A stretch of DNA of 64,000 bases from Escherichia coli (GTDB lineage Bacteria; Pseudomonadota; Gammaproteobacteria; Enterobacterales; Enterobacteriaceae). Position 1 is the stretch's first letter. Each line of letters starts with the position of its first letter. Positions 2,933 through 48,778 of the stretch are shown in pieces. The notes beneath the pieces were generated by a model. The model was not told the DNA's origin. It saw nothing but the letters and a program-made list of their open reading frames with translations, and did no database searches. The translations under genes and the position numbers were made by a program. The stretch lies in the NCBI RefSeq assembly GCF_024700885.2, contig NZ_CP117016.1. One strand, given 5' to 3'.

Positions 2933-3691
2933 ATGTCCTTCATGTCTTCGTTCTTGCTCGGCAGATTTCTGCATCCAGGCGTGTTTTCGTTATGCGTTTT
3001 GCTCCCTTTACTCGCCAGCGCCACCACATCACATATCTCATTCAGCTACGCCGCCCGCCAGCGGATGCAAAACCGTGCGCGTTTATTAAAACAGTACCAA
3101 ACCCATCTGAAAAAACAGGCCAGCTATATTGTGGAAGGCAATGCCGAAAGCAGAAAGGCGCTGCGCCAGCACAACCGCGAACAGATAAAACAGCATCCAG
3201 AATGGTTTCCTGCGCCGCTCAAGGCAAGTGACAGACGCTGGCAGGCGCTGGCGGAGAACAACCATTTCTTAAGCAGCGACCATCTACACAACATCACCGA
3301 AGTGGCGATTCACCGCCTGGAGCAGCAGCTTGGCAAGCCTTACGTCTGGGGCGGCACGCGGCCCGATCAAGGCTTCGACTGTAGCGGGTTGGTTTTTTAT
3401 GCCTACAACAAGATCCTCGAGGCGAAGCTCCCGCGCACGGCCAATGAGATGTATCACTACCATCGGGCAACGATTGTGGCGAACAACGACCTGCGCCGGG
3501 GAGATTTGCTGTTTTTCCATATTCACAGCCGTGAAATTGCCGACCATATGGGCGTGTATCTGGGAGACGGTCAGTTTATCGAGTCGCCGCGCACGGGGGA
3601 AACCATTCGGGTAAGTCGGTTAGCTGAACCTTTCTGGCAGGATCATTTTTTAGGCGCGCGGCGGATTTTGACGGAGGAGACGATTTTGTAA
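2933..3691 (+). CDS. yafL: NlpC/P60-family peptidoglycan hydrolase lipoprotein YafL
   Basis: 252-aa ORF; NlpC/P60 core GKPYVWGGTRPDQGFDCSGLVFYAY ... DHMGVYLGDGQFIESP; start codon choice among first Mets uncertain. Confidence 0.9.
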   Translation: MSFMSSFLLGRFLHPGVFSLCVLLPLLASATTSHISFSYAARQRMQNRARLLKQYQTHLKKQASYIVEGNAESRKALRQHNREQIKQHPEWFPAPLKASDRRWQALAENNHFLSSDHLHNITEVAIHRLEQQLGKPYVWGGTRPDQGFDCSGLVFYAYNKILEAKLPRTANEMYHYHRATIVANNDLRRGDLLFFHIHSREIADHMGVYLGDGQFIESPRTGETIRVSRLAEPFWQDHFLGARRILTEETIL

Positions 3692-4104: not shown

Positions 4105-4396
4105 AATCTACCCCTACACAGTTAACAAACCACTCCTTAAGACCTGCTACTGCGCCTTTATCCATCACATTCTTTGGATGTGGCTCATGTGTGCTGAATT
4201 TGGTCGTTCCAATCTGAAATTTTCGTCTGGAGCCGTTGTTATTTTTTATTGTTCCACCCACAGCTTTAATGAGTGCAACAACATCATCCCATTTAATTCC
4301 AGATTTTGGCGGCTCCGTCATTACATCGTCGAATGTTTTTCTATGACGAGAGCCTAGCGCGCTGACCTTAATCATACTATCAATCCATGACGTCAT
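4097..4396 (-). CDS. HicA-family mRNA-interferase toxin (long form)
   Basis: 99 aa (or 92 aa from M8 at 4375); pattern IKWDDVVALIKAVGG...NGSRRKF....FSTHEPHPKNVMDKGAVAGLKEWF matches the HicA layout (W-D..L....G / GS+ / H.PHP / kgav..v+.fl). Confidence 0.65.
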   Translation of the reverse strand: MTSWIDSMIKVSALGSRHRKTFDDVMTEPPKSGIKWDDVVALIKAVGGTIKNNNGSRRKFQIGTTKFSTHEPHPKNVMDKGAVAGLKEWFVNCVGVDYE

Positions 4397-4479
4397 TGTA
4401 TGGTGTCATCGTAGTCTCTTTGCAGTGTGACGTCAATTAATGGTGTCAGGTGCTGCAAAGCATGGAAAAGATTCCTCAA

Positions 4480-6573
4480 TCAACTCAACGCCCCCATAAT
4501 CTTCAACTCCAGCTCATCCGGCACTTCGTTATACGACAGCACATGCAGCCCCGGCGCAAACAATCTCGCATAGCGCGCCAGCAAAGGACGCAACTGCGGC
4601 GGCACCAGCAGCACCGGGTCTTTCCCCGCCGCTTTCATCTGCTCCTTCACCTGCGGCATCGTGATCTGAAACTGGTTGAGCATATTCGGGTCAACCGGTA
4701 CGCTGTCGAGCATCACTTTCCCGCCCTGTTGCGCCTGATTCACCACGTTGGTCAGCAGATTTTCCAGCTCATTATTCAGCGTATACACCGTCAGCTCCTG
4801 CTTGCGAACGAGCGGATGGGTAATGCTGCGCCGTAGCGCCAGGCGCACATCAGCTGCCAGCAGAATATGATCTTTGGTCACTGTGCTACTGGCGACCAGC
4901 ACGGTGGCGATGGTGACGATATCGCGCAGGGAAACGCCTTCAGTCAGTAGCGCCCGGTACACTTTCAGCAACTGGCTGTAATTGAGCGCCGCGCTCAAAT
5001 CTTCCGCCAGTCGCGGTGCCATCGACGACAAACGGTTATGCAGCTGAGTAATATCGTCATAGTTAAACAAATCAGGAATATAGCTGCGGACAATCTTGTT
5101 CACATGGGTGGCAATCACGCTGGCGCTGTCGATCACCTGATACCCCATATTCAGCGCCTTCGCTTTCTGCGCAGGCTGAATCCAGGTGACCGGCATCCCG
5201 TACGCCGGGTCGTTCCCCAATACGCCGTCTATCTCGCCGTAGGTTTCGCTGGAGGGCAGGGCCATCAGTTTATCCGCCGGAATATCCGCTTCATCAGCCT
5301 TAATGCCGTTGATGAAAATGGCGTACTGGCTGGGCTTGAGGCGGAAATTTTCCCGAATGCGGATCTCCGGCAGCAGCACGCCGTTGCCGTCGGAAATCAC
5401 CTGCCGCACGCCGCGAATCCGCTGGGTGAGCGGGTTACCTTGGGCTTTATCGACCAGCGCCACCAGCTTGTAGCCGAGGCTTAAGCTGATGGGCTCGATC
5501 AGCGGAATGGTTTCCCAACTGACCTGTTGCTCGCTGGTTTCAGTGATAGTGCGGGTCAGCGTTTCGAGACTTTTCTCTTCTGCCTCCGCCGCCTGCGGGC
5601 GTTTGCTCATCCGCCAGCCGGTAAAGCCAAGCAGGGCGCTGAACAGCAAAAACGGCAGATGCGGCATTCCCGGCACCACCGCCAGTACGAACATGATCCC
5701 GGTGGCGGTGTAGAGCACCGACGGGCTTGCCAGCAGCTGGTGGCGCACGTCATGGGCGATATCGCCGTTGTCGCTGACGCGGGTGACGATAATCGCCGCC
5801 GCGGTGGAAAGCAGCAGGGAAGGGATCTGCGCCACCAGGCCGTCGCCGATGGTCATCAGCACATATTGCTGGAAGGCGGCGTCGGCGCTCAGGTTGTATT
5901 TGAAGATCCCGATACAGACGCCGCCGATCAGGTTGATCGCCAGAATCATCATCCCGGCTATGGCATCCCCACGCACAAACTTCGATGCCCCGTCCATCGC
6001 GCCGTAGAAATCGGCCTCGCTGGCAACATCTTTACGCCGTGTTTGCGCCTGCGCCTGGTTGATCAACCCGGCGTTAAGATCGGCGTCAATCGCCATCTGT
6101 TTGCCGGGCATCGCGTCCAGGGTAAAGCGGGCGGAAACCTCGGAAATACGCTCGGCCCCTTTGGTGACGACGATAAAGTTGATGATCATCAGGATGATAA
6201 ACACCACGAAACCGACGACAAAGTTGCCGCCAATCACCACCTGACCAAATGACTCAATCACCTTACCTGCTGCGCCCGCGCCGAGATGCCCGTGCAGTAG
6301 CACCACGCGCGTAGAAGCAACGTTCAGCGTCAGGCGCATTAAGGTGGTGATCAGCAAAATGGTCGGGAACAGGCTGAATTCCAGCGGCCTTTTCGCCGAC
6401 ACCGCCACCAGCAGCACCATCACCGCCAGCACAATGTTGAAGGTGAACAGAATATCCAGCAGCGCAGGCGGCAGCGGCAAAATAACCATCGCCAGAATAC
6501 ACAGGATCACCAGCGGCACGCCGGGATTACCGCCGCGCAGTAGCGCGAGGAACGATTTAGTTGTTTTCGCCAT
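4480..6573 (-). CDS. lfhA: Flag-2 lateral flagellar export gate protein LfhA (FlhA homologue), full length
   Basis: 697 aa; FlhA/T3SS export-gate N-terminal TM domain and cytoplasmic domain; position next to lfhB. Confidence 0.9.
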   Translation of the reverse strand: MAKTTKSFLALLRGGNPGVPLVILCILAMVILPLPPALLDILFTFNIVLAVMVLLVAVSAKRPLEFSLFPTILLITTLMRLTLNVASTRVVLLHGHLGAGAAGKVIESFGQVVIGGNFVVGFVVFIILMIINFIVVTKGAERISEVSARFTLDAMPGKQMAIDADLNAGLINQAQAQTRRKDVASEADFYGAMDGASKFVRGDAIAGMMILAINLIGGVCIGIFKYNLSADAAFQQYVLMTIGDGLVAQIPSLLLSTAAAIIVTRVSDNGDIAHDVRHQLLASPSVLYTATGIMFVLAVVPGMPHLPFLLFSALLGFTGWRMSKRPQAAEAEEKSLETLTRTITETSEQQVSWETIPLIEPISLSLGYKLVALVDKAQGNPLTQRIRGVRQVISDGNGVLLPEIRIRENFRLKPSQYAIFINGIKADEADIPADKLMALPSSETYGEIDGVLGNDPAYGMPVTWIQPAQKAKALNMGYQVIDSASVIATHVNKIVRSYIPDLFNYDDITQLHNRLSSMAPRLAEDLSAALNYSQLLKVYRALLTEGVSLRDIVTIATVLVASSTVTKDHILLAADVRLALRRSITHPLVRKQELTVYTLNNELENLLTNVVNQAQQGGKVMLDSVPVDPNMLNQFQITMPQVKEQMKAAGKDPVLLVPPQLRPLLARYARLFAPGLHVLSYNEVPDELELKIMGALS

Positions 6574-9865: not shown

Positions 9866-10709
9866 GGCTATTCTCATTTTTGCCCGCCAGCTCCGACAAA
9901 AACAGTTTGTCTTTGTCTTCCACAATCAGGGCGCTAAATAATTCAGATTGCCCAATCGCCACCGGGAACGTTTCTCCCAGCGAGATGGGTAAAATATCCC
10001 CGGCTTTTATCTGCGTGAGATCCGCGACATTCAGCGACAGCTCGGCGATTTTGACGTTCAGGGTCAGCGGCAGAGAGCGGATAATCTCTTTAATCAGGGC
10101 CGGTTTATTAACGGATTTCGCCACCTGCTGCGGTTTACTGTGCTCGCTGTGGCGGATCAGATTCAAAATAAAATCGGTGTGGGCGTCGTCGAGCAAAATA
10201 CGAAAACTGCTCTCTTCATCGCCCGCAAGGGTAAAGGTTAATTGATACGCCCAGTGGGTAATCACCGTGCTGCTATCCAGCTTTAATTTCAGCGCAATAC
10301 CGGAGGTTTGCAGATTAAATATCAGCGTGCAGATATCCAGCGCGAGTCGGTTTTTTAAACGAGTTTCGGTTTTGGTCGGCAGCCCGTTATGCGCTTTCGC
10401 CTCTTCAAGAGAGGACTCCAGACCATAAAAATTGCCCAGCAGCATTAACAATAAGGAGCGATCAATATCAAACGCCAGATGCCCGACCTGGGAAACCATC
10501 AGTTCGGCGTTTTTATTAATAATATCCATTTCGCAGCCAATCTTTTTTAAGGTGATATTGCTGCGATGCTTTTTGAGAAAGTAGCTGCCCAGATGCGAAT
10601 CAATCACGTCAAAATTCCCCGTAAACAGGGTCGGCAGGCGATGGTAGGGGCGTCCGAGCCGATTACCTTCTAATTTAAAGATGCCTGGCGTTTTACTGTA
10701 CTTCAGCAT
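9858..10709 (-). CDS. lfiM: Flag-2 switch protein LfiM (FliM homologue)
   Basis: 283 aa, first gene of the leftward lfiMNPQR-lfhBA string. Confidence 0.8.
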   Translation of the reverse strand: MLKYSKTPGIFKLEGNRLGRPYHRLPTLFTGNFDVIDSHLGSYFLKKHRSNITLKKIGCEMDIINKNAELMVSQVGHLAFDIDRSLLLMLLGNFYGLESSLEEAKAHNGLPTKTETRLKNRLALDICTLIFNLQTSGIALKLKLDSSTVITHWAYQLTFTLAGDEESSFRILLDDAHTDFILNLIRHSEHSKPQQVAKSVNKPALIKEIIRSLPLTLNVKIAELSLNVADLTQIKAGDILPISLGETFPVAIGQSELFSALIVEDKDKLFLSELAGKNENSHE

Positions 10710-24469: not shown

Positions 24470-25723
24470 ATGCTGGAACAAATGGGCATTGCCGCGAAGC
24501 AAGCCTCGTATAAATTAGCGCAACTCTCCAGCCGCGAAAAAAATCGCGTGCTGGAAAAAATCGCCGATGAACTGGAAGCACAGAGCGAAATCATCCTCAA
24601 CGCTAACGCCCAGGATGTTGCTGACGCGCGTGCCAATGGCCTTAGCGAAGCGATGATTGACCGTCTGGCACTGACGCCCGCACGGCTGAAAGGCATTGCC
24701 GATGATGTGCGCCAGGTGTGCAACCTCGCCGATCCGGTGGGGCAGGTAATCGATGGTGGCGTGCTGGACAGTGGCCTGCGTCTGGAGCGCCGTCGCGTGC
24801 CGCTGGGTGTGATTGGCGTGATTTATGAAGCGCGGCCGAACGTGACGGTTGATGTCGCTTCGCTGTGCCTGAAAACCGGTAACGCAGTGATCCTGCGTGG
24901 TGGCAAAGAAACCTGTCGCACTAACGCTGCAACGGTGGCGGTGATTCAGGACGCCCTGAAATCCTGCGATTTACCGGCAGGCGCAGTACAAGCGATTGAT
25001 AATCCTGACCGCGCGCTGGTCAGTGAAATGCTGCGTATGGATAAATACATCGACATGCTGATCCCGCGTGGTGGCGCTGGCCTGCATAAACTGTGCCGCG
25101 AACAGTCGACGATCCCGGTGATCACAGGTGGTATAGGCGTATGCCATATTTATGTTGATGAAAGTGCAGAGATCGCTGAAGCCCTGAAAGTAATCGTCAA
25201 CGCGAAAACCCAGCGTCCGAGCACATGTAATACGGTTGAAACGTTGCTGGTGAATAAAAACATCGCCGATAGCTTCCTGCCTGTGTTAAGCAAACAGATG
25301 GCTGAAAGCGGTGTGACGTTACACGCCGATGCTACCGCACTGACGCAATTGCAGGCAGGTCCCGCGAAGGTGGTTGCTGTTAAAGCTGAAGAGTATGACG
25401 ATGAGTTTCTGTCATTAGATTTGAACGTCAAAATCGTCAGCGATCTTGACGATGCCATCGCCCATATTCGTGAACACGGCACACAACACTCCGATGCGAT
25501 CCTGACCCGCGATATGCGCAACGCCCAGCGTTTTGTTAATGAAGTAGATTCATCCGCTGTTTACGTTAACGCCTCTACGCGTTTTACCGACGGCGGCCAG
25601 TTTGGACTGGGCGCGGAAGTGGCGGTAAGCACACAAAAACTCCACGCGCGTGGCCCAATGGGGCTGGAAGCGCTGACCACTTACAAGTGGATCGGCATTG
25701 GTGATTACACCATTCGTGCGTAA
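24470..25723 (+). CDS. proA: Gamma-glutamyl phosphate reductase
   Basis: 417 aa [36 protein letters not shown]... Confidence 0.96.
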
Positions 25724-25837
25724 ATAAAACCGGGTGATGCAAAAGTAGCCATTTGATTCACAAGGCCATTGACGCATCGCCCGGTTAGTTTTAACCTTGT
25801 CCACCGTGATTCACGTTCGTGAACATGTCCTTTCAGG

Positions 25838-25913
25838 GCCGATATAGCTCAGTTGGTAGAGCAGCGCATTCGTAATGCGAAGGTCGTAGGTTCGACTCCT
25901 ATTATCGGCACCA
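25838..25913 (+). tRNA. thrW: tRNA-Thr (anticodon CGT)
   Basis: 76 nt GCCGATATAGCTCAGTTGGTAGAGCAGCGCATTCGTAATGCGAAGGTCGTAGGTTCGACTCCTATTATCGGCACCA: acceptor stem pairs, T-loop GGTTCGA, encoded CCA. Confidence 0.95.
25897..25913 (+). repeat. attL core (3' end of thrW)
   Basis: TCCTATTATCGGCACCA, repeated with one G missing at 38138-38153. Confidence 0.8.
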
Positions 25914-26077
25914 TCACCTAGTTTTCCCAAGTCAACCCACATCAACAAAATCATTTAAAAACATATATATTACGTTGTTTTCATACGTTTGAGGTCAACC
26001 CTTGTCTCTTGAAATCAACACGCGGTTGGGGGCACAATCAGGGGCATGTTCTGTTCGGTCTAGGAAATGTGCCCCCA

Positions 26078-27268
26078 ATGATGCTGAATGCCCGCAAGGT
26101 TGAAGCTGCGAAAGGAAAAGAGAAGAGCTACAAGCTGTTTGATGGAGGTGGCCTATATCTTCAGGTCGAACCTAATGGCTCGCGTTACTGGCGTATGAAA
26201 TACCGTTTTGCTGGTAAAGAGAAACGATTGTCCTTTGGTGTTTATCCAACAGTCACACTTGCTGATGCCAGACAAAAACGAGAAGACGCGAAGAAACTAC
26301 TCGCAGCAGGTGAAGATCCCGGCGAAGTCAAAAAAGCCAAAAAGCAGGCTTTAAATGCAGCGATTGAGACACTTAACCCATTCAGAGAAGTGGCGTTAGA
26401 GTGGCACAAAATGAAATCACCCAAATGGTCTGAGGGCTATGCTTCCGACATCATTGAGGCATTCGAGAAAGACATTTTCCCGCATATTGGGCACAGACCT
26501 ATAGCTGATATTCAGCCCCTTGAACTGCTTGAAGTTCTGAGATTGATAGAAGCTCGAGGCGCTATGGAGAAAGCGAAGAAAGTCCGTCAGCGATGCGGTG
26601 AAGTTTTTCGCTATGCCATCGTAACGGGTAGGGCAATCTACAATCCGGCACCGGATCTTGCCAGTGCGATGCAAGGACATGAAGCAGTCCACTATCCATT
26701 CCTCAAAGCCAACGAACTACCGGAGTTCTTTAATGCCCTTAATTCTTATTCAGGAAGTCCAATTGTATTGTTGGGGGCGCATTTACTTATCCTGACAGGT
26801 CTACGAACTGGAGAACTACGAGCAGGTGAGTGGCGAGAGGTGGATTTTGATAATGCGGTGTGGGAGATCCCAAAAGAACGTATGAAAATGCGTAGGAGCC
26901 ATATTGTCCCGTTGTCAAAACAAGCATTATCCCATCTCAAAAGTTTGAAAGAACTAACTGGGAACTACCCGCTGATGTTCCCTGGACGCAACGATCCTAG
27001 CAAATTTATGAGTGAAGCAAGCATTAATCAGGTGTTTAAACGTATTGGATATGCAGGGCGTGTTACGGGGCATGGTTTCAGGCATACGATGAGTACAATC
27101 CTACATGAGAAAGGATTTAACAGCGCTTGGATTGAAACCCAGCTTGCTCATTCGGACAAAAACTCTATTCGTGGAATTTATAACCATGCCCAATATCTCG
27201 AAGGGAGAAGAGAAATGATGCAATGGTATGCTAATTATTTATCTGAGCTAATTGGTACTCATAAATGA
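26078..27268 (+). CDS. int: Tyrosine recombinase, P4-type integrase
   Basis: ORF 26009-27268 (TTG); likely ATG 26078: MMLNARKVEAAKGKEKSYKLFDGGGLYLQVEPNGSRYWRMKYRFAGKEKRLSFGVYP (P4-int N-terminal arm domain); catalytic HGFRHT...H..R..Y region near the C-terminus. Confidence 0.9.
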   Translation: MMLNARKVEAAKGKEKSYKLFDGGGLYLQVEPNGSRYWRMKYRFAGKEKRLSFGVYPTVTLADARQKREDAKKLLAAGEDPGEVKKAKKQALNAAIETLNPFREVALEWHKMKSPKWSEGYASDIIEAFEKDIFPHIGHRPIADIQPLELLEVLRLIEARGAMEKAKKVRQRCGEVFRYAIVTGRAIYNPAPDLASAMQGHEAVHYPFLKANELPEFFNALNSYSGSPIVLLGAHLLILTGLRTGELRAGEWREVDFDNAVWEIPKERMKMRRSHIVPLSKQALSHLKSLKELTGNYPLMFPGRNDPSKFMSEASINQVFKRIGYAGRVTGHGFRHTMSTILHEKGFNSAWIETQLAHSDKNSIRGIYNHAQYLEGRREMMQWYANYLSELIGTHK

Positions 27269-28089: not shown

Positions 28090-28214
28090 ATATTAACAAT
28101 TATTGTGGCTAATGATTTTGGATTTTTTTCATTAGTCACATTTTTCTCATTTATAACCTATGTTTTAATTTTCCGTGTTGAAGCCAATAGACTTAGATAA
28201 ACGGAGAATGATGA

Positions 28215-28421
28215 ATGTTATCTAAACATGATAATACTACTTTGCAACGACCTTCAATGGATTCTCTGATCGATATGAAGTTTATTACTTCCGATTGTTT
28301 ATTAAGTGATAAATGGATTTATCGATTGATTTCTCTGAATCGCTTTCCAAAACCTATAAAAATAGGTCGGATGTCACGATGGCGCGCTGCTGATTATTAT
28401 AAGTGGCGAGATGGGTTTTAA
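28215..28421 (+). CDS. alpA: AlpA-family transcriptional regulator / excisionase-like protein
   Basis: 68 aa; SDKWIYRLISLNRFPKPIKIGRMSRWRAADYYKW matches the AlpA/Vis HTH pattern (..iyrli..g.FPkPikiG.rs.W...ev..W). Confidence 0.75.
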   Translation: MLSKHDNTTLQRPSMDSLIDMKFITSDCLLSDKWIYRLISLNRFPKPIKIGRMSRWRAADYYKWRDGF

Positions 28422-28537
28422 GAAAACTCAGGTCAACATTTTGAGGGAATGAGAAATAAGGCAAGAGCAATTAATAAAGGGAATAGATTATCACCTACTC
28501 CCTAAGCCTTAATTGATAGTTAGTAATATTTAACTGA

Positions 28538-28711
28538 TTAGCCTTTAGGGTCAATCCCGCGTGATTGGAGTTCTTTGCGTAAAATTCTTTTAATCCAAGT
28601 TGCCAACGCGCTATCTCCATCTTTGCGCATTTCGTTTTCGAGTTGCAACCTAAAATCGTCGGTAAGACGCATTTGGAATGGTGGAGAACGTTTCTCTTGT
28701 GGTGTTGACAT
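28538..28711 (-). CDS. Small ribbon-helix-helix (Arc/MetJ-like) DNA-binding protein, candidate satellite repressor
   Basis: 57-aa ORF below the ORF-track cutoff, translated by hand: MSTPQEKRSPPFQMRLTDDFRLQLENEMRKDGDSALATWIKRILRKELQSRGIDPKG; beta-strand FQMRL plus two helices; its start codon lies inside the operator repeat. Confidence 0.6.
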   Translation of the reverse strand: MSTPQEKRSPPFQMRLTDDFRLQLENEMRKDGDSALATWIKRILRKELQSRGIDPKG

Positions 28712-28751
28712 GGTAATTACCCTAGAATATGATGACTACATGGTAATTACC
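28705..28751 (+). promoter_or_regulatory. Early rightward promoter (TTGACA-17-TATGAT) bracketed by two ACATGGTAATTACC operator repeats
   Basis: TTGACA 28705-28710, TATGAT 28728-28733; 14-bp direct repeats at 28708-28721 and 28738-28751, each with the perfect palindrome GGTAATTACC. Confidence 0.65.
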
Positions 28752-28842
28752 ATTGTAAGTATAGTTCGCTTGTAAAAGCAATGCCCGATTGTGCGGGAAC
28801 ACAAATCGGGCATTTAACCAACCGTTATAAGAGGTAACGAAG

Positions 28843-29019
28843 ATGGCTAAACAGAAGTGTACTTGGTTATTTGCGGCGATCAACCGCAGTCAACGCAATG
28901 CCCGTCCTGTGATGTTAAGGATCACCGCAGATAACGAGCGGTCAGCGCGGCGCAGACTTGCCCCGGACTATGTACTGAGCTTTGCCGGGCGCATTCCCTG
29001 CGGAGGTGAACATGCGTAA
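28843..29019 (+). CDS. Icd-like host cell-division inhibitor family small protein
   Basis: 58-aa ORF translated by hand: MAKQKCTWLFAAINRSQRNARPVMLRITADNERSARRRLAPDYVLSFAGRIPCGGEHA; resembles remembered Icd-like proteins of P4-type elements (..ARP..L.v.A..E..ARR.La....LSFAaRlPv). Confidence 0.6.
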   Translation: MAKQKCTWLFAAINRSQRNARPVMLRITADNERSARRRLAPDYVLSFAGRIPCGGEHA

Positions 29020-29371
29020 TTATCCGCACCCCGGCGAACGCTGGCAGCATGAACGTGGCTGGACGGTCACGATTATCCGATTAATAGAAGCATCGCCCTC
29101 TGTGGCACTGGTTAATCCTGAATTCAGCTGTGAAGTGCTGATACGTCATGACAGCGACAACCAGCTTTCTTCCTGCCCTCTGGCATGGTTTGAACAGCGG
29201 TATACGCGCCTGTTTGATGTACCGCTCTTTAAGCCTGCACCAGCTCCTGCAGGCGGTAGTGGTTCCGGCCCGCTGACACTGCATCCGTCTGTGCTATTTA
29301 TCCGCTGGCGGGAGCGTAGCATATGGCGTTCTGCTGAGCCTGACGACGGTCACTATTCAAAGTTTCTCTGA
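29012..29371 (+). CDS. Hypothetical protein (satellite early operon)
   Basis: ORF 28982-29371; ATG 29012 overlaps the stop of the preceding gene (ATGCGTAA). Confidence 0.55.
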   Translation: MRNYPHPGERWQHERGWTVTIIRLIEASPSVALVNPEFSCEVLIRHDSDNQLSSCPLAWFEQRYTRLFDVPLFKPAPAPAGGSGSGPLTLHPSVLFIRWRERSIWRSAEPDDGHYSKFL

Positions 29372-29402
29372 CAAAATACCGCTGAAAACGGAGTAATCCA
29401 CG

Positions 29403-29687
29403 ATGAATATTTCAAACGGGCACAACGGTGCTCAGGGCCACACTTTGCCTGAAAAACACAATACCGGTGCTTTTGCCTATGGGTTGTCAGAGGACAGTTT
29501 CGGAAAGCTGACCCGCGCAAGAAATGCCTGCGACATGCTCCAGCTTCTCTTTTCTGAATACCCGTCTCAGGCCGGAGCACTGGACGCTGGCTGTGCGCAT
29601 GGTGTCGCCGCGCTGATGGAGTACCTGCTGGCAGATTTGACGGATATTGCACACAGCTGCGCACTGATTGAAGGAGGTGCCAGATGA
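29403..29687 (+). CDS. Hypothetical protein (satellite early operon)
   Basis: 94-aa ORF, same strand and GC style as neighbours; ATGA overlap with the next ORF. Confidence 0.55.
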   Translation: MNISNGHNGAQGHTLPEKHNTGAFAYGLSEDSFGKLTRARNACDMLQLLFSEYPSQAGALDAGCAHGVAALMEYLLADLTDIAHSCALIEGGAR

Positions 29688-30067
29688 ACCAGCCGCAGGT
29701 TTCCATTTTCCCGGCAGAAATGACCACCGCGCTTTACCGGCGGGCTATTGCTTCAGCATGGCGGCAGAAAATGCTGAACGAAACTGGCAGTGATCAGTAT
29801 GGTCCGCACAGCCTGACGGTGGAGCGTATTGAAATGGCCATTGCGCTGCATATCGAGTGCGTACTGATTAACGAGTACGGCGAAGTGCAGGGCGCCGCTG
29901 CCGCGCTGGCACTGCTGACTGACATGCTGGAGCCGTCACTGCTGACCGCGCCGCCGGTACTGACCGCGCGCGGCTGTGAAGTGATGGCGGAGATGTACCG
30001 CACGCTTCCGGCGGCCTTTGATGACTTCTGCAGTACCGGTGTGACGTTGTATGAGGGGGAAGTATGA
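29684..30067 (+). CDS. Hypothetical protein (satellite early operon)
   Basis: 127-aa ORF, ATGA-coupled on both sides. Confidence 0.55.
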   Translation: MNQPQVSIFPAEMTTALYRRAIASAWRQKMLNETGSDQYGPHSLTVERIEMAIALHIECVLINEYGEVQGAAAALALLTDMLEPSLLTAPPVLTARGCEVMAEMYRTLPAAFDDFCSTGVTLYEGEV

Positions 30068-32736
30068 CAATACAGACGGTTACGCAGATTTCAGCCGCCG
30101 CACGGGGGAAATGGCCCGTTATTCTGCAGATGCTGCGTATTGATGTACCTGAAAACGGCAGGCACGGTCCCTGCCCGAAATGTGGGGGCAAGGATCGTTT
30201 TCGCCTTGATGACCTTGACGGGCGCGGGACGTGGATCTGCAGCCAGTGTGGCAATGGTGACGGTCTGGATCTGGTTAAGCTCGTAACCGGTTACAGCGTC
30301 AGAAAGGCTGCGCAGGAGGTGGCGCAGGTGCTTAATGTGCCGAATATGCAGGAACTGCCTGTTAAGCCTGCCAGACAAAAAGCCCCTAAACGCGACATGG
30401 GTCTTACCGTGGCGGCGCTGATGAAAGAGAGCCACACGGGAGAAAGCGCCTATCTGACAGGAAAAGGGTTCGCCGGATACCCGGCCTCTCTGACCGGAAG
30501 CGTGCAGCATATCAGCGGTAAGGATTTCCCTGCCGGTTCCCTGCTGTTACCACTCACGACCAACACCGGAGCCGTGACCGGTGCACAGCTTATCGCCCCG
30601 ACGGGTGAAAAAAGCATACTGCCCGGCAGCACGATGAAAGGCGCGTTTGTGTCGCTCAGCCCGTTACCGTCTGAACCACCGGTACAGGTGGTGATTACCG
30701 AAGGTTACGCTACGGCGCTGACGGTAAGTCAGCTCACTGCCGGATGCGTAGTGGCTGCCATATCTGCGGGCAACCTGCCCAATGTGGCGCAGTCGCTGCG
30801 GGCACGCTGGCCTGAGGTAAAAATTATCATCGCCGGTGATAACGATTTTCAGGACGGAGATGAGAATCCCGGCAGAGCCTTTGCTGAACGGGCGGCAAAA
30901 GCTGTTGGCGGCTGGATGACGCTGCCACCAGGAGAGATTAAGGCTGACTGGAATGACTTTCATCGGGAGCACGGTATTACCCGTGCCCGTGAAGCCTTTC
31001 GCAACGGTCTGGTACTGTGCGGGGAAGGCCGCACGCAACTGCCGCACGGGTTCCGTCTTACCCAGGAATATCTCTGGTATGAAAAGCAGGTACAGCGCAA
31101 CGGTGAGACGGAGATCCAGAACGTCAAAATATGCAGCCCGCTGCGCGTGACGGCAATCACCTGCGATGCCGATGGCGGTAACTTCGGACGACTGCTGGAA
31201 TGGGAAGATACGTGGGGTGAGTGTCGCCGCTGGGCGATGCCGATGGAAATGCTGAGCGGCAGTGGTGAGGAACTGCGCCGGGTACTGCTGGTTAACGGGC
31301 TGTCTTATATCAGCACCACCGGTGAGGCACGCGCACGCCTGATGGAATATATCTCACTGTGTAAACCGGAACGCCGCGTGACCTGCGTCAGTCGTACTGG
31401 CTGGCATGGTCAGGTTTACGTCCTGCAGGATGAGGTCAGCGGTGAAGGTGCAGAGGGTGTCATTCTCCAGACCACTTCCGTGCAGGGGCGTGATTTCCGC
31501 GTGTCGGGCACAACAGAGGAATGGCGGGAGCATGTATCCCGCTACTGTACCGGCAACTCCCGCGTGGCATTTGCTGTCAGCCTGGCCTTTGCTGCACCAC
31601 TGTTACGGCTGGTTGGTATGGACGGCGGCGGCTACCACCTCAAAGGGGAATCGACAGACGGTAAGACCACCACCATGAAAGCGGCAACCTCCGTCTGCGG
31701 CGGGCCTGACTACTGGCAGACATGGCGGGCCACCGGCAACGCGCTGGAGGGATGCGCCAGCCGCCGCAACGATGCCGCCATGATGCTTGATGAGATCCGG
31801 GAAGTTGACGGACGCGAGGCAGGCAATATCGCCTACATGCTGGCAAACGGTCAGGGCAAGGGCCGTGCCGGTACGGACGGTGAGCTGCGTACCCGTAAGC
31901 AGTGGCGCCTGTTGTTCTTTTCAACTGGCGAGTTGTCTCTGACCGAACATGCGGCAAAGGCCGGTGAGCGTACTTTTGCCGGGATGGAAGTCAGGATGAT
32001 CCAGATCCCCAGCGATTCCGGGAAGTTTGGCGTTTTTGAGGAGCTGCACGGCTTCGACAGCGGCAAGGCTCTGGCAGAGCATCTTGAATGGGCCACGTCC
32101 TGCTACTACGGTTCGCCGTTCCGGGAGTGGCTGAAAGCACTGACCGCTGATCTTAACGGACTAACGGCACAGGCAAAATCGCTGATGAAGGAATATGCTG
32201 CCGCCCTGACTCCGAAAGATGCAGGCAATCAGGTGGGCCGGGCTGTGAACCGCTTTGCTCTGGTGGCGATGGCAGGTGAACTGGCAACCCGTCTGGGTAT
32301 CACCGGCTGGCCTGAGGGTGAAGCACTGCGGGCAACCCGCGTCTGCCTGAACGCATGGCTGAAAGATCGCGGGCACACCGCCAATCAGGAAGATATCGCC
32401 GCACTGGAGCAGGTTCGCAGTTTCTTTACCGCGAATCAGTACAGCCGCTTTGCAGACTGGTATGACGAGCGCAACCGCCCCGGCAATATGGTGGGCTGGC
32501 GCAGGGTGGAGAAAGGCAGTACCGCGCAGGGCACGGAAGCTGTCACTACGTTCTATGTCATGCCGTCCGGCTGGAAAGAAATCTGCAGGGGATTTGACCC
32601 GCGCAAGGTGGCGCGTCTGTGCGCAGATCGTGGATACCTGCTGCCCTCCACAGATGGCAAACTCCAGACAACCATTCGCCCGCCAGAGATGAATCCCCGC
32701 AGGCTCTATGTCTTCAACAGCGAGGTGCCTGGTTAA
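30064..32736 (+). CDS. P4 alpha-type bifunctional DNA primase / replicative helicase
   Basis: 890 aa; N-terminal Zn ribbon CPKCGGKDRFRLDD...CSQCG, Toprim-like acidic motif IIIAGDNDFQDGDENPG, helicase Walker A GESTDGKTT. Confidence 0.88.
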   Translation: MTIQTVTQISAAARGKWPVILQMLRIDVPENGRHGPCPKCGGKDRFRLDDLDGRGTWICSQCGNGDGLDLVKLVTGYSVRKAAQEVAQVLNVPNMQELPVKPARQKAPKRDMGLTVAALMKESHTGESAYLTGKGFAGYPASLTGSVQHISGKDFPAGSLLLPLTTNTGAVTGAQLIAPTGEKSILPGSTMKGAFVSLSPLPSEPPVQVVITEGYATALTVSQLTAGCVVAAISAGNLPNVAQSLRARWPEVKIIIAGDNDFQDGDENPGRAFAERAAKAVGGWMTLPPGEIKADWNDFHREHGITRAREAFRNGLVLCGEGRTQLPHGFRLTQEYLWYEKQVQRNGETEIQNVKICSPLRVTAITCDADGGNFGRLLEWEDTWGECRRWAMPMEMLSGSGEELRRVLLVNGLSYISTTGEARARLMEYISLCKPERRVTCVSRTGWHGQVYVLQDEVSGEGAEGVILQTTSVQGRDFRVSGTTEEWREHVSRYCTGNSRVAFAVSLAFAAPLLRLVGMDGGGYHLKGESTDGKTTTMKAATSVCGGPDYWQTWRATGNALEGCASRRNDAAMMLDEIREVDGREAGNIAYMLANGQGKGRAGTDGELRTRKQWRLLFFSTGELSLTEHAAKAGERTFAGMEVRMIQIPSDSGKFGVFEELHGFDSGKALAEHLEWATSCYYGSPFREWLKALTADLNGLTAQAKSLMKEYAAALTPKDAGNQVGRAVNRFALVAMAGELATRLGITGWPEGEALRATRVCLNAWLKDRGHTANQEDIAALEQVRSFFTANQYSRFADWYDERNRPGNMVGWRRVEKGSTAQGTEAVTTFYVMPSGWKEICRGFDPRKVARLCADRGYLLPSTDGKLQTTIRPPEMNPRRLYVFNSEVPG

Positions 32737-33046: not shown

Positions 33047-33102
33047 TGTGCCAGCCACCACACACTGAACACCGATAGTGTGCTTGTGTCAGCCACGACA
33101 CA
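33047..33102 (+). promoter_or_regulatory. Ogr/Delta-dependent late promoter (two TGT-N12-ACA sites) upstream of sid
   Basis: TGTGCCAGCCACCACACA (33047-33064) and TGTGTCAGCCACGACACA (33085-33102), centres 38 bp apart; sid ATG at 33137 preceded by AGGAG. Confidence 0.65.
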
Positions 33103-33136: not shown

Positions 33137-33880
33137 ATGAACAATACCGCAGTAAATAACAACCTTTCCACTTTTCCGGCTGTAACGCAGCGGGCACTGG
33201 AAACCATGAACACAGCCAGAAACGCATGGCTTGAAGCACGTCGTCAGCAGAAAGCGGCAGCGGATAATATTGCGACAATCCGCCAGCGTCGCGCTGAAAT
33301 GGAAGCCACGACGAACACACTGAATGAGGAGTGGCGCACGCTGTTTCGTGAAAGTCAGGGCGTGATCTCAAAGGAAATGAAAAAACTGCGCACGGAAATT
33401 GCGCTGGGACGAGAAACGCTTGAGGATTTTGATGAGCTGCTGGCGGCTCAGGAAAGCGAAAATGCACTTTTGCCGCAGAAAGCTGCAGAATTAGCCGGAA
33501 AGTATATCCACGCGCATAACATTCTTGTGGATATTCGCGCAAAACAAATCTGGGAGGATTTTATGCAGTCGCATGGAAAAGTGCTTATTCAGACGCTGAG
33601 CCTGCTTAAATCCACAATGGGCCGGGAAGCCAGTGCCGTTGTGGGTGTGGTGAATTCAGTTAATGACCCGGACACAGTGCTGAAAGACTTTATTCATAAA
33701 TATATCACCAGACCGGCTCTGGCTAACGATGCGATGCCTGAGCAGGACCCGGTGTTTAAACTGGCGGGAGTTGCCCCGGATTATGCGGCGCGTCTGGATT
33801 TCAGTAATCAACTCTCTCCGGCAGCTATGCATAAAATTAAGGTTCGTCAGGAACTTGCTGAGAAGGAGAAAGCAGTATGA
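33137..33880 (+). CDS. sid: Sid-like capsid size-determination (external scaffold) protein
   Basis: 247 aa; segment EEWRTLFRESQGVISKEMKKLRTEIALGRETLEDFDEL parallels remembered P4 Sid (DDWRTAFRAAGGVLSDELKQRHIE...); size and position fit. Confidence 0.7.
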   Translation: MNNTAVNNNLSTFPAVTQRALETMNTARNAWLEARRQQKAAADNIATIRQRRAEMEATTNTLNEEWRTLFRESQGVISKEMKKLRTEIALGRETLEDFDELLAAQESENALLPQKAAELAGKYIHAHNILVDIRAKQIWEDFMQSHGKVLIQTLSLLKSTMGREASAVVGVVNSVNDPDTVLKDFIHKYITRPALANDAMPEQDPVFKLAGVAPDYAARLDFSNQLSPAAMHKIKVRQELAEKEKAV

Positions 33881-34428
33881 CGGCCCGAGGCACGCCTGAC
33901 CAGGCACTTACCAGTTTTCGGAATGCCCGTATTCTGTGGGCCGGACATAATGAGAGCCGAAAAGCCGTTGAACAACAGATAACATCTCTCCTCGCTGCCA
34001 CAGAAAAACCAGCAGATTATGCCCGACAGCTCGAATTACTGCGGGAACGTCTGGATGTGCTGAAATGGCAAATTAACTGTGCTGCGCGCGAATGCATTTA
34101 CTCGCAGCATTTACTGATGGAGGCCTGCACAGAAGCCGCTCTCAGCAATTTTATGCAGGCGAATGGGGCAGCCCTGACATCTGCACTGGCTCCGTTCCTG
34201 AAGGGGCGCGGAGGGGTTGACGTTGCGTCCCGTATATTACGCAGTGCTCTGGTTCGCCAGCTGGCAATAACACCGCCTGAATTTGCCGGGGATTATCGTG
34301 AGATCCTGGATGAATCCGGTTTGATGCTTGACCCCGGGATGATTCGTGATTGCCAGGGTTCTTACACCCCGGCACAACATCTGCGTTTTCAGCAACGCCT
34401 GAATGACATTAACGATATACAGGAGTGA
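33877..34428 (+). CDS. psu: Psu-like polarity-suppression / capsid decoration protein
   Basis: 183 aa; FMQANGAALTSALAPFLKG parallels remembered P4 Psu FMQQHGTALAAALAPELMG; ATGA-coupled to sid. Confidence 0.7.
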   Translation: MTARGTPDQALTSFRNARILWAGHNESRKAVEQQITSLLAATEKPADYARQLELLRERLDVLKWQINCAARECIYSQHLLMEACTEAALSNFMQANGAALTSALAPFLKGRGGVDVASRILRSALVRQLAITPPEFAGDYREILDESGLMLDPGMIRDCQGSYTPAQHLRFQQRLNDINDIQE

Positions 34429-35294: not shown

Positions 35295-35457
35295 TGCTCC
35301 TTACGCGTTATGGCATAGTTATATGCTAGTCGGGCGATTAGCCAGACTCGAACTTATTGAACGGTATTAGGGTTGCGCTTGGTGTGCCTCTGGATTGCAC
35401 TCCATGCTGTCGCGCAATCCAGAGGCACACCAAGCGCTTCCTTTAGGTAAGTGAGTA
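35295..35457 (+). ncRNA. Retron msr-msd non-coding RNA (predicted)
   Basis: a1 TGCTCCTTAC (35295-35304) pairs with a2 GTAAGTGAGTA (35447-35457); G35305 directly 3' of a1 in CTTAC-G-CG context; two short msr hairpins (35311-35328, 35329-35347); 24-bp perfect msd hairpin 35375-35398/35414-35437; immediately upstream of effector and RT genes. Confidence 0.7.
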
Positions 35458-35529
35458 AAAACAGCACCTTCTTCGATTTATGATGAAGGTGCTGCAATCG
35501 TAACGTTTTTTGTATACACGGATAGTATA

Positions 35530-36498
35530 GTGGCTGAGACATACGAAGATAAAGTTGCTAATCATGTTTCAGAGTGGGAAATGGAAAATTTCCGTGTATG
35601 TTATGATGATCAGGTTATTTTCTTATGTGGTGCGGAAGTACTTCCTCAAGGAAGTGTTCAGACTTCAATGAGAGGGCATTTTTATCACTATTGCCTGAAT
35701 AAAAATAAAGATATAGCTGATAAAATAATTCTTGCCGAAAACTTCAAAAAATATCTTCAAAATAATCATTATCCAGACTTAATAACTTTTGAGCATGATG
35801 TTGCAAGTATATCTAGTTTAGTTGTTATTTTCTTGGAAAGCAGTGGTTCAATTGCTGAGTTAGGTGTTTTCTGTAATATTAGTGATGTCAATAAAAAATT
35901 ATTGATATTTGTTCCATCAGATGAAGTTGAAGGTGACAAGAAAGAGTCTTTCATTTACTTAGGGCCTTTATTGTTTTTAAAAGAAAAGGTCAATGAAAAA
36001 GCATTTAAGATTTATCCAAAACCCACTAATGGTTCTGATTACTCCGAGCATTTAGAGATTATGGCTGATGACTTGGCTGAACTATTACCTAGAAGTGGTA
36101 AGTTTGAAAGCTTCGATCCTGACAATTTAGGGCATATAGCTTTTCTTATATGCAGAATTGTGCATTTAGTAATGCCTATTAAGCTAAAGGAAATATTAAA
36201 TTGTTTAAAAATAATAGGTATCAATAAATATACTCTGACTGAGGTTGAAAGAATTTTGTTTTTATTGGAAACATTGGGTTTTATAAATATTTATCCGTAT
36301 GGCGATTTAAAATACTATTATTCAATGCAAGCCAGGCAAAATCTTAAATTAGGGAAAAATAAAACCGGATTCACAATCGATGAGGCTGGTATTTTTACTG
36401 ATATTAGTGTTTTTATCAATGACAATAAATTATGTAGTGATAAAAAAAGACGGCTGGTTTTGAAAGGCATTAAGGAGAAGCATAATGGACATAATTAA
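35530..36498 (+). CDS. Retron effector: nucleoside deoxyribosyltransferase-like N-domain plus C-terminal winged-helix-like domain (St85/Ec73-type layout)
   Basis: 322-aa ORF (GTG start; ATG at 35581 is an alternative); Rossmann-like VIFLCGAE and FLESSGSIAELGVF (candidate catalytic Glu) typical of NDT-like retron effectors; overlaps the RT start by 14 nt. Confidence 0.7.
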   Translation: MAETYEDKVANHVSEWEMENFRVCYDDQVIFLCGAEVLPQGSVQTSMRGHFYHYCLNKNKDIADKIILAENFKKYLQNNHYPDLITFEHDVASISSLVVIFLESSGSIAELGVFCNISDVNKKLLIFVPSDEVEGDKKESFIYLGPLLFLKEKVNEKAFKIYPKPTNGSDYSEHLEIMADDLAELLPRSGKFESFDPDNLGHIAFLICRIVHLVMPIKLKEILNCLKIIGINKYTLTEVERILFLLETLGFINIYPYGDLKYYYSMQARQNLKLGKNKTGFTIDEAGIFTDISVFINDNKLCSDKKRRLVLKGIKEKHNGHN

Positions 36499-37417
36499 AA
36501 AAATCGCAGATGAAACTCTAATGCCGGTATCAAAAGTATCTGCTTTTATATTTACAGCCCCATATAGATATAAAGTATATCCCATCCCCAAAAGGAATGG
36601 TGGGTTTAGGGAGATTGCTCAACCGTCAAGGGCATTAAAGTTTATGCAAAGGATTGTTATTGCTGAACTAGAGAAAGTACTTAAGGTTCATGAAAACGCA
36701 TATGCTTATGTCAAAGGACGTAGTATAAAAGATAATGTGGAAAAGCATCAAAGAAACTCTTATATTTTGAAAGTTGATTTCTGCGACTTTTTTAATAGCA
36801 TAAACCCTTACGACCTTGAGTTATGTTTAAAAAACAATGGGTTAGACTCATTGTTAAGCTCACAAGAATTATTGAATAAACTTTTTTTCTATAAGAAAAG
36901 TAAAAGAGGTGCTTTATCAATGAGCATCGGGGCACCTAGTTCTCCATTTTTGTCAAATGCGATTATGTATAAGTTTGATTCAGTCATTAGTGATATGTGT
37001 TCAAATAAAAATATTACTTATACAAGATATGCTGATGATCTTACATTTTCTACTAATGAAAAAGGTATTTTGTATGAATTCATACATGAAATAGATAAAG
37101 TTCTTGAGGAGATAGATAGTCCTAAATTAAAACTAAATGATAAGAAAACCATATTTGCATCTAAAAAATGCAATCGTCATATAACAGGAATTGTTATTAA
37201 TAACGAAGAAAAACTTTCAATTGGTAGAGATAAAAAACGTTACTTAAGTAGTTTAATTCATAAATTCTCGCTTAATGCACTTAATGAGGAAGGAGTTGAA
37301 CATTTAAAAGGGTATTTGGCGTATGTAAATAAAATTGAACCTTCATTCATTAGCAGAATGAAAAGGAAATATGGAGTCGAAGTTGTCAACTCCATAATCA
37401 CATTTAATCCATTATAA
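36485..37417 (+). CDS. ret: Retron-type reverse transcriptase
   Basis: 310 aa; RT motifs FREIAQPS, NAYAYVKGRSIKDN, KVDFCDFFNSI, IGAPSSPFLSN, catalytic YTRYADDLTFS and retron-typical ITGIVIN (VTG) motif; no maturase, endonuclease or other extra domains. Confidence 0.9.
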   Translation: MDIIKKIADETLMPVSKVSAFIFTAPYRYKVYPIPKRNGGFREIAQPSRALKFMQRIVIAELEKVLKVHENAYAYVKGRSIKDNVEKHQRNSYILKVDFCDFFNSINPYDLELCLKNNGLDSLLSSQELLNKLFFYKKSKRGALSMSIGAPSSPFLSNAIMYKFDSVISDMCSNKNITYTRYADDLTFSTNEKGILYEFIHEIDKVLEEIDSPKLKLNDKKTIFASKKCNRHITGIVINNEEKLSIGRDKKRYLSSLIHKFSLNALNEEGVEHLKGYLAYVNKIEPSFISRMKRKYGVEVVNSIITFNPL

Positions 37418-48552: not shown

Positions 48553-48565
48553 TGCATTGAATAAT

Positions 48566-48594
48566 AAAAATGGCGCAAATGCAGCGCCATTTTT
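48566..48594 (+). terminator. Terminator after yagU
   Basis: aaaaatggcgc aaatgca gcgccattttt. Confidence 0.8.
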
Positions 48595-48743
48595 ATAGGT
48601 TAAAAACATTGCTTTTTACTTTCTGAAGCAGATAGCCAGTGAGTACATCGCGCTACTTCAGGATGCTGTAGATCCGGAGAACACTATAGAGGAAGATGCA
48701 TTGTTGCTGGCAGATGGAAGAAGTTTCGGGTTTTGTTATCCCT

Positions 48744-48778
48744 GAAAAACGAAGCCCCGCGGTTATAGCTGGCGGGGC
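48744..48778 (-). terminator. Terminator after ykgJ
   Basis: gccccgc/gcggggc stem followed on the reverse strand by cgttttt. Confidence 0.65.

Follow-up and report, generated by a model that had tools for sequence, protein, structure and literature searches.

How does a satellite prophage keep its replication genes silent in the lysogen when it lacks the immunity RNA of phage P4? The question is raised by a P4-like satellite prophage in the 64,000-nucleotide stretch of Escherichia coli DNA analysed here (the window; NCBI RefSeq assembly GCF_024700885.2, contig NZ_CP117016.1). Between its AlpA/Vis-like gene and an early operon that runs from an Icd-like gene to the alpha primase-helicase gene, the satellite carries a short leftward gene of 57 codons, the start of which is buried in one of two identical 14-bp repeats. 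The best explanation of this region, judged by sequence comparison, is that it is the lysogeny (immunity) control region of the satellite. Comparison with related loci supports the view that the palindromes within the repeats are operators of the 57-codon gene, and its product probably represses the rightward promoter of the early operon by binding to them. A conserved cis-antisense RNA related to SymR appears to belong to the same module as the repressor and its operators.

Two repeats and two predicted facing promoters

The control region comprises the following elements (all positions are those of the window):

28538-28711, minus strand: 57-codon putative repressor gene; its ATG (28711-28709) lies inside the ACAT of repeat 1 and overlaps the -35 hexamer of P_R
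28705-28733, plus strand: predicted rightward promoter P_R, TTGACA 28705-28710, 17-bp spacer, TATGAT 28728-28733
28708-28721: putative operator O1, repeat copy 1, its GGTAATTACC core (28712-28721) in the spacer between the -35 and -10 hexamers of P_R
28738-28753: putative operator O2, repeat copy 2 plus ATGGTAATTACCAT, over the predicted starts of P_R and P_L
28753-28764: possible third site, degenerate TTGTAAGTATAG, matching at 8 of 10 positions
28752-28781, minus strand: predicted, weak leftward promoter P_L, -35 TTGCTT 28781-28776, 18-bp spacer, -10 TACAAT 28757-28752

The 14-mer ACATGGTAATTACC occurs twice, at 28708-28721 and 28738-28751, 30 bp from start to start, and each copy contains the perfect 10-bp palindrome GGTAATTACC; around the second copy the symmetry widens to a perfect 14-bp palindrome, ATGGTAATTACCAT, at 28740-28753. 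Exact GGTAATTACC is present at these two sites only in the whole 64 kb. When up to one mismatch is allowed there are five matches against 1.39 expected, a number that none of 100 shuffles reached. The pair is also the single one of its kind in the window: no other identical 14-mers lie 14-60 nt apart, and 100 first-order Markov simulations of the window gave a mean of 0.03 such pairs per window. One-mismatch operator-like sites at 10257 and 17423 (outside the element) and at 30690 (inside alpha) were not regarded as meaningful.

P_R matches the consensus at 11 of 12 positions and is the best promoter-like site that a consensus scan finds in 28100-29100. Its start is predicted near 28740, and it is predicted to drive the operon from the Icd-like gene to alpha. 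O1 doubles as the 5' untranslated region and Shine-Dalgarno region of the 57-codon gene. The predicted start of P_L, at about 28745, falls inside O2, so that P_R and P_L would face each other across this operator with overlapping polymerase footprints. An abutting minus-strand TAnnnT next to O2 is found in 28 of 34 distinct related regions. Several relatives (L011, L014, L019, L024 and L034) have TGTAATTACA at 12 bp from the O2 centre; to regard TTGTAAGTATAG in the window as a degenerate third operator is speculative.

The original prediction, made from this sequence alone, had described the two 14-bp repeats with their palindromes, the near-consensus promoter directed toward the Icd-like/alpha operon and the gene start at 28711 inside repeat 1, and each of these can be read directly from the sequence. 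It had also let the operators bracket the face-to-face promoters. The predicted promoters do lie face to face, but O1 is inside the P_R spacer and O2 sits between the two -10 hexamers. The leftward -10 that it had proposed, TATACT, is present on the minus strand at 28763-28758 but is probably 6 bp off: we rejected it since no usable -35 lies 16-18 bp upstream and conservation favours TACAAT.

Putative operators change together with the protein

We gathered 66 loci encoding relatives of the 57-residue protein and compared their 42 distinct control regions, drawn from at least 20 genera. The great majority share one layout, in which TTGACA over the start codon is followed by O1, a -10 hexamer, O2 and a minus-strand TAnnnT. 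TTGACA is invariant and always fused to the start codon (TTGACAT), which accounts for the equally invariant Met-Ser N-terminus of the proteins. Counted from the first T of TTGACA, the O1 core starts at 8-10 nt in nearly every locus that has a recognisable core, and nearly all 42 regions retain a -10 of the TAnnnT type at a distance of 16-18 bp. Among the 14 loci of class 1, which represent nine genera and several orders, the -35 hexamer, O1, parts of the -10, the outer bases of O2 (CATGGTA...ACCAT) and the minus-strand -10 are invariant, and the spacers between these conserved elements drift.

The core of the operators differs among the relatives, and with it the predicted N-terminal strand of the protein:

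KRSP(P/Q)(F/Y)QMRL: operator core GGTAATTACC
KRSPQFPMRL: operator core GGTATATACC (Citrobacter, Photorhabdus)
K(T/S)(D/Q)QYQ(I/L)RL: operator core TGTAATTACA
RRGNPPFQFRL: operator core TGTGTAATTACACA, plus extra half-sites

O1 and O2 change jointly, and with the protein strand, without exception wherever they are callable in the 42 regions. Where the predicted strand differs (Q13 to P; RSP to TD), the centre and the outer bases of the palindrome differ too. The conservation of the palindromes in related satellites, a point raised in the original prediction, is therefore found as a kept position relative to the promoter elements combined with a sequence that changes with the protein strand. A homologue of AlpA was detected by tblastn in only 15 of 61 loci, which indicates that the operators follow the repressor and not AlpA. 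Within 3-kb flanks an alpha-like primase was present in 23 and an integrase in 26 of these 61 loci, and the downstream operons are diverse.

The distance between the centres of O1 and O2 is 27, 29, 30, 31, 34 or 35 bp among the relatives. Because of this variation between 27 and 35 bp, in which helical phasing is not conserved, a single tetramer bridging O1 and O2 is unlikely, and the dimer of dimers that had been proposed to occupy the two palindromes finds no support. By analogy with MetJ-type boxes, one dimer per 10-14-bp palindrome is a more plausible stoichiometry.

In Photorhabdus khanii (L037), upstream of position 3001, a deletion has fused O1 and O2 into a single AGGTATATACCT and removed the -10 of P_R; it probably arose by recombination between the two repeats. 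Pasteurella phage Pmp8 (L071, OR544139.1, 15 kb) has the same kind of cassette at 4307-5177, with a 58-residue relative of 74% identity and sites of the TGTAATTACA type. Its cassette adjoins a gene annotated as 'transcriptional repressor' with an Icd-like domain, a label which, like the old 'cI protein' of P4, is probably a legacy misannotation.

The 57-residue protein and its probable fold

RefSeq lists the product of the 57-codon gene as hypothetical protein WP_001605077.1. We found 85 clusters of homologues with 54-98% identity in Enterobacterales, Pasteurellaceae and Gilliamella (Orbaceae), and further relatives in Oceanisphaera and Oceanimonas. Differences within the gene family are concentrated at third codon positions (1237, 620 and 2800 at the three positions) and this bias, together with the conserved homologues, shows that the open reading frame (ORF) is a real coding gene. 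One more element lies beyond its end:

28478-28503, minus strand: terminator-like hairpin with T-run, 35 nt past the stop codon (consensus scan)

This hairpin is one-directional, its plus-strand side being without a T-run.

Several signals, each of them weak, converge on a ribbon-helix-helix (RHH) protein. The single profile match of the window protein is phrog_228, 'Arc-like repressor' (E 0.003). Pfam Arc is matched by 13 of 41 relatives, with a best E of 1.5e-4. Only 41 clusters came from a profile search against 1.8 billion representatives, and distant members of these match HicB (8), RHH_5 (6), RHH_1 (5), Arc (4) and also NikA-like profiles, all of them RHH families. The hhalign alignment with P22 Arc pairs PPFQMRL of the family with PQFNLRW and G-D-S with G-R-S, in register and at marginal significance (P 1e-3). 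Sequence searches of the PDB with the 57-residue protein returned mostly designed helical repeats, with AmrZ as the lone RHH match (E ~1). Modelled by AlphaFold2 (AF2) from a diverse alignment, the protein has residues 1-17 extended, a helix at 18-31, a G32-D33-S34 turn and a second helix at 36-50, with a mean pLDDT of 78.8; the model is of a monomer, in which the beta-strand of an RHH protein cannot form. It agrees with the layout of the RHH module (about 45 residues: N-terminal strand, helix A, a G-x-S/T/N turn, helix B), and the D-G-D-S/T turn is nearly invariant in the family. The top Foldseek matches in the PDB are almost all RHH proteins (NikR, AtaR, PutA, MazE-mt1), with root-mean-square deviations of 1.0-2.2 A over about 40 residues. 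From this convergence of weak evidence the protein is likely of the RHH type. The 57-residue RHH gene of the original prediction is thus a real and conserved coding gene, its RHH assignment coming from sub-threshold matches and a monomer model.

Members of the family and their positional equivalents are currently annotated as 'hypothetical', 'HicB' or 'YlcI/YnfO', and some sources use the name 'HicB family' for relatives. No toxin gene lies next to the 57-codon gene, whose neighbours are the AlpA/Vis-like gene (convergent) and the Icd-like gene (opposite strand). The reading as a type II toxin-antitoxin system was rejected, there being no adjacent co-transcribed partner gene.

A candidate SymR-like antisense RNA at the head of the operon

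Opposite the start of the operon lies a second candidate regulator:

28848 to about 28770, minus strand: candidate for a cis-antisense RNA of the SymR kind, about 75-79 nt long, with a 5' AGCCAU that complements the ATGGCT start of the Icd-like gene
28856-28883, minus strand: predicted promoter of the antisense RNA, TTGATC 28883-28878, 16 bp, TACACT 28861-28856, start A at 28848

The candidate RNA bears an anti-Shine-Dalgarno sequence in the loop of hairpin 2, followed by the linker UGGUUA, a terminator hairpin (28814-28780) and a U-run, which accompanies this hairpin on the minus strand only and overlaps the -35 of P_L. A relaxed Rfam search matched SymR (RF01809) on the minus strand at 28848-28777 over the full length of the model, with 31.6 bits and E 2e-4; this is below the Rfam gathering score of 61 and so not at the level of a curated member.

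A TAnnnT precedes AG(C/T)CAT by exactly 7 nt in all 44 distinct related sequences, and this spacing is held though the proteins encoded by the first gene of the operon have at least half a dozen different N-termini. Of the 19 pairs that RNAalifold gave for 32 sequences, 13 show compensatory changes. The minus strand is the more stably folded one in 32 of 32 (mean -32.1 versus -21.2 kcal/mol) and the variable pairs, read on the minus strand, comprise 49 G-U against 8 A-C; the stability of the minus strand and the excess of G-U over A-C indicate that the structure is selected on the antisense transcript. The RNA of the window folds at -28.5 kcal/mol (z -4.97). A covariance model, R1, was built from the antisense RNA sequences of related loci. 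It scores 73.3 bits in the window and, among loci on which it was not trained, 68.7 in an E. coli P4-like satellite (L002), 60.5 in Pmp8 and 53.1 in EcCICFT073. The genuine SymR beside symE is matched over its full length (33.3 bits, E 1.4e-5), and P4 gives no match to this model.

The first gene of the operon nearly always begins with ATGGCT (Met-Ala) in related loci, whichever protein it encodes (28843-28848 in the window). This constancy is in keeping with a constraint from the RNA, whose 5' AGCCAU forms pairs with the conserved UGGU(U/C)A linker. The candidate and SymR are alike in a 5' end that complements the start codon of the target, a long first helix with an anti-Shine-Dalgarno sequence, and a terminator hairpin with a GUGUU...GCAC top. 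They differ in the target, which is symE for SymR and the Icd-like gene or another early satellite gene for the RNA described here. Their relation may be one of common descent or of convergence.

An exchangeable cassette in the place of the P4 immunity region

In P4 the same position, between Vis/AlpA and the Icd-like ORF, serves the same task, silencing of the alpha operon in the lysogen. The means are different: P4 uses a processed sense-strand CI RNA and premature termination, and has no leftward protein gene at this position. We searched the window for the corresponding Rfam families. C4, isrK and c4-a1b1 are absent at gathering score in the whole window and at E <=10 in 28400-30100, and none was found in L002 or in L003, another E. 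coli P4-like satellite; P4 itself, used as a positive control, scored 74.9 bits for C4, 60.8 for isrK and 44.1 for c4-a1b1. A P4-type CI RNA, isrK and seqA were rejected for the window after this search. Since the region is collinear with Vis, PLE/CI-RNA and the Icd-like ORF of P4 and the CI RNA is absent, the cassette appears to replace the CI-RNA immunity region. The contrast drawn earlier between a protein-based switch here and the RNA-based immunity of P4 holds as far as the CI RNA is concerned, but it left out the conserved SymR-like RNA in the module.

Comparison of close relatives suggests that the cassette exists as exchangeable alleles of different specificity. L059 and L060 have 87-100% protein identity to the window across the Icd-like-to-alpha operon and carry a 54%-identical repressor allele with another operator type. 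In L002 and L003 the operon from the Icd-like gene to alpha is near-identical to that of the window and another gene fills the repressor slot: in L002 (3689-4062) it is a leftward gene of the YlcI/YnfO family, with GTGCGATTCAC three times, and in L003 (3717-4028) a leftward 64-residue relative, with TGTGTAATG-N3-CATTACACA. Between the YlcI/YnfO protein and the 57-residue family there is a weak alignment, which is in register. Homology of L002 and L003 to the window breaks at the hairpin of the antisense RNA, at about 28783. Among 5,426 E. coli genomes, 65 contain the whole region; in about 267 the shared sequence begins only at about 28783 or 28817 and extends rightward. The junction at about 28783 thus seems to behave like the boundary of an immunity cassette.

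Proposed mechanism and its alternatives

In the lysogen, occupancy of O1 in the P_R spacer would exclude RNA polymerase, and occupancy of O2 would add to the repression of P_R and at the same time limit P_L, making the repressor autoregulated. Silencing of P_R should free the weak P_L from occlusion, because the footprints of RNA polymerase on the two promoters overlap. Being complementary to the leader, Shine-Dalgarno sequence and start codon of the Icd-like gene, a constitutive antisense RNA would base-pair there and block translation of a leaky P_R transcript or destabilise it. One possibility for induction is rightward transcription activated by AlpA, which would cross the repressor gene in antisense direction and enter the operon. 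Such read-through is possible because the terminator after the repressor gene is unidirectional, and it would fit the published phenotype of AlpA overexpression.

A number of observations speak against this mechanism or weaken parts of it. The window protein has no match in Pfam or NCBIfam, the Foldseek matches have E of at least 2, which is not significant for so short a model, and a first AF2 run on a shallower alignment of 41 close relatives gave one long helix. P_L is a poor match to the consensus, with three of six positions in its -35, and was not called by the consensus scan; 6 of the 34 relatives are without a -10 abutting O2, and transcription that starts at the antisense RNA promoter and reads on might supply the repressor gene instead. 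In class 1 the centre of O2 varies (AATT, AATG, AACG, ACCG, AAGT) while the protein strand is constant, so O2 may be the weaker operator, or its outer bases may be what the protein chiefly reads. Since each covariation class is a clade, only about 3-4 independent changes are represented. Finally, lysogeny may be kept by the RNA rather than by the protein.

The last point leads to an alternative in which the antisense RNA is the main immunity determinant and the 57-residue protein an autoregulated fine-tuner of the CopG or Cro kind. Conservation of the RNA is wider than that of any single repressor allele, since it is found with RHH, YlcI/YnfO and other cassettes, and the loose conservation of the O2 centre would also be in accordance with such a role. 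In addition, P4-like elements can replicate as plasmids, and in the pMV158 family an RHH protein and an antisense RNA control copy number. However, an RNA that is nearly the same across different cassettes cannot give allele-specific immunity, and specificity lies in the pair of protein and operator. In a prophage, a cell-division inhibitor and a replicase placed behind a promoter that matches the consensus at 11 of 12 positions require silencing at the level of transcription, and O1 lies in the spacer of this promoter. We therefore consider this alternative unlikely, and still favour repression of P_R by the 57-residue protein.

The palindromes might also be bound by another protein (AlpA/Vis-like, integrase or a host factor), the 57-residue protein having an unrelated role, for example that of an orphan antitoxin-like protein. 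In P4, Vis binds close to PLE/PLL, the statistics of the RHH assignment are weak, and relatives bear the name 'HicB family' in some sources. This is made quite improbable by the operator class, which tracks the N-terminal strand of the 57-residue protein and not AlpA, integrase or the downstream operon, by the interlocking of gene start and -35 with O1 in all relatives, and by the missing adjacent toxin partner. It is hardly credible that the repeat has no regulatory role and is just a neutral local duplication or a relic: the loss of the segment between the two sites in L037 can be cited in its favour, but the repeats are conserved across several orders with diverging flanks, change in concert and hold a fixed position relative to the hexamers. 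Repression through the two palindromes remains the reading that we prefer.

Likeness to other repression systems

The facing promoters recall immI of phage P22, where, from the work of Sauer, Susskind and McClure, a strong promoter is said to face a weak repressor promoter. The two promoters there are Pant and Pmnt and the repressors Mnt and Arc. At immI two protein repressors and an antisense RNA, sar, control ant (PMC2629481). As there, a small repressor, probably of the RHH type, would act in the window on short symmetric operators within a strong promoter or at its start, and a candidate cis-antisense RNA covers the ribosome-binding site of a downstream gene. The window differs in having one repressor, in the SymR-like nature of the RNA and in the target, which is the replication/Icd-like operon and not an antirepressor; no Ant, Bro or Rha domain, as expected of an ant-type target, was found among the proteins scanned. 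The operators differ as well, being perfect palindromes of 10-14 bp about 30 bp apart, compared with the 21-bp two-subsite operator of Arc.

Plasmids of the pMV158 family have the CopG repressor, an RHH protein, on a pseudo-symmetric promoter element, and antisense RNA II at the translation initiation region. The likeness is in the two-layer control, proposed for the window, of a replication gene by an RHH-type protein and an antisense RNA. In contrast, copG is co-transcribed with repB, whereas the repressor gene of the window is on the opposite strand with its own promoter; furthermore, pMV158 is a rolling-circle plasmid and the element of the window an integrated satellite.

The phage-inducible chromosomal islands (PICIs) of Gram-positive bacteria, such as the staphylococcal islands (SaPIs), carry the repressors Stl or Rpr, transcribed away from the replication/excision operon that they control (PMC6092414). 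A divergent repressor gene, a shared control region and a presumed role in satellite quiescence are common to Stl and the window. Stl-type repressors are large helix-turn-helix proteins inactivated by binding of helper-phage proteins, unlike the 57-residue RHH-type protein described here.

The satellite and its surroundings

The window is part of an E. coli chromosome, with 100% identity to strain 1190 across the tested region, and the P4-like satellite is inserted at tRNA-Thr (25838-25910), next to and downstream of proBA. Its genes outside the control region are:

26009-27268: integrase, first gene of the satellite, annotated in the RefSeq twin
Between integrase and AlpA/Vis-like gene: ORF of 274 residues
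28215-28421, plus strand: AlpA/Vis-like gene, convergent with the 57-codon gene; Pfam PF05930, E 2e-4; phrog_66, excisionase/regulator
28843-32736, plus strand: early/replication operon, with Icd-like gene, orf129, orf94, DUF5375 and alpha primase-helicase
28843-29019, plus strand: Icd-like gene, first of the operon; NCBIfam NF033153, E 5.5e-24
30064-32736, plus strand: alpha primase-helicase; in the RefSeq twin a TOPRIM+DUF927 protein
33137-33880 and 33877-34428: two Psu-family proteins (sid-like, psu)
After the psu genes: Ogr/Delta gene, Ogr_Delta match E 7e-16

The satellite has the P4-like core set in the sense of SatelliteFinder (integrase, AlpA/Vis, alpha, Sid, Psu, Delta). Its Icd-like protein is 54% identical to an ORF within the obsolete 'cI protein' annotation of P4, and three small ORFs, DUF5375 among them, lie between the Icd-like gene and alpha. 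Just upstream of the sid-like gene (33137) are two TGT-N12-ACA dyads, TGTGCCAGCCACCACACA and TGTGTCAGCCACGACACA, at 33047-33064 and 33085-33102, which are expected to form an Ogr/Delta-activated late promoter. A Delta/Ogr-type TGT-N12-ACA late promoter, the counterpart of P4 PLL, was also sought upstream of the AlpA-like gene and was not found there. An inverted repeat, CTAATGA-N-TCATTAG (in GTGGCTAATGA...TCATTAGTCAC), is present at 28108-28140, about 80 bp upstream of the AlpA-like gene, and could be a regulator site or the terminator of the preceding ORF.

The accessory hotspot of the satellite, after the Ogr/Delta gene, holds a complete type II-A retron (35296-37417). It consists of an msr (Rfam RF00170, 53.4 bits), an NDT effector (35530-36498), named 'retron St85 family effector' in RefSeq, and a reverse transcriptase (36485-37417; PADLOC RT_II-A, E 7e-123). 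A retron within a satellite recalls retronphage phiR73. Outside the satellite, Rfam matched IS009 RNA at 48558-48758 with 190.7 bits.

Relevance to Gram-negative satellites

The same layout is found in EcCICFT073 of E. coli CFT073 (L074, NC_004431.1, 24525-26052, with the control region at 25652-25852), the model PICI of Gram-negative bacteria. Its order is int, alpA, a leftward YlcI/YnfO gene encoding 59 residues, TTGACG-17-TATAGT, the SymR-like RNA and the Icd-like gene, and a direct repeat, GTGGGCCACACCT, is present on both sides of the -10. A second leftward ORF of 57 residues (25242-25415), unrelated in sequence, is present in EcCICFT073 too.

AlpA was found to be an activator, and the difference from Gram-positive islands has been called 'a mystery' (PMC6092414). 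The immunity RNAs that PMC10111431 describes, in some PICIs, are of the C4/isrK type only. Neither PMC11773190 nor PMC8628076 mentions such a repressor or antisense RNA, and a 2026 survey lists 'HicB' and 'YlcI/YnfO' satellite genes as accessory (PMC13612085). We found no RHH repressor or SymR-like RNA in the literature on P4-like satellites and PICIs; our coverage of this literature is incomplete, and novelty is therefore provisional.

The kind of switch described here is known, and it is the satellite setting which bears on the open question of the master repressor in Gram-negative satellites. It is conceivable, though we consider it somewhat doubtful, that small RHH repressor alleles (including 'YlcI/YnfO' and 'HicB-like' ones), twin operators and a SymR-like RNA together form the master repression system of these satellites, serving P4-like elements as well as PICIs such as EcCICFT073, that helper-induced AlpA overcomes it, and that the chromosomal SymR is a domesticated relative. 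If the 57-residue protein and its positional equivalents do act as repressors, they would provide a concrete and testable candidate for the missing repressor, one present in EcCICFT073, and the mosaic boundary at about 28783 would be explained as the junction of an immunity cassette. Genes that are now labelled 'hypothetical', 'HicB' or 'YlcI/YnfO' could be better annotated, the RNA would define a family, related to SymR, that had not been catalogued before, and hetero-immunity groups of satellites would become predictable from the operator sequence.

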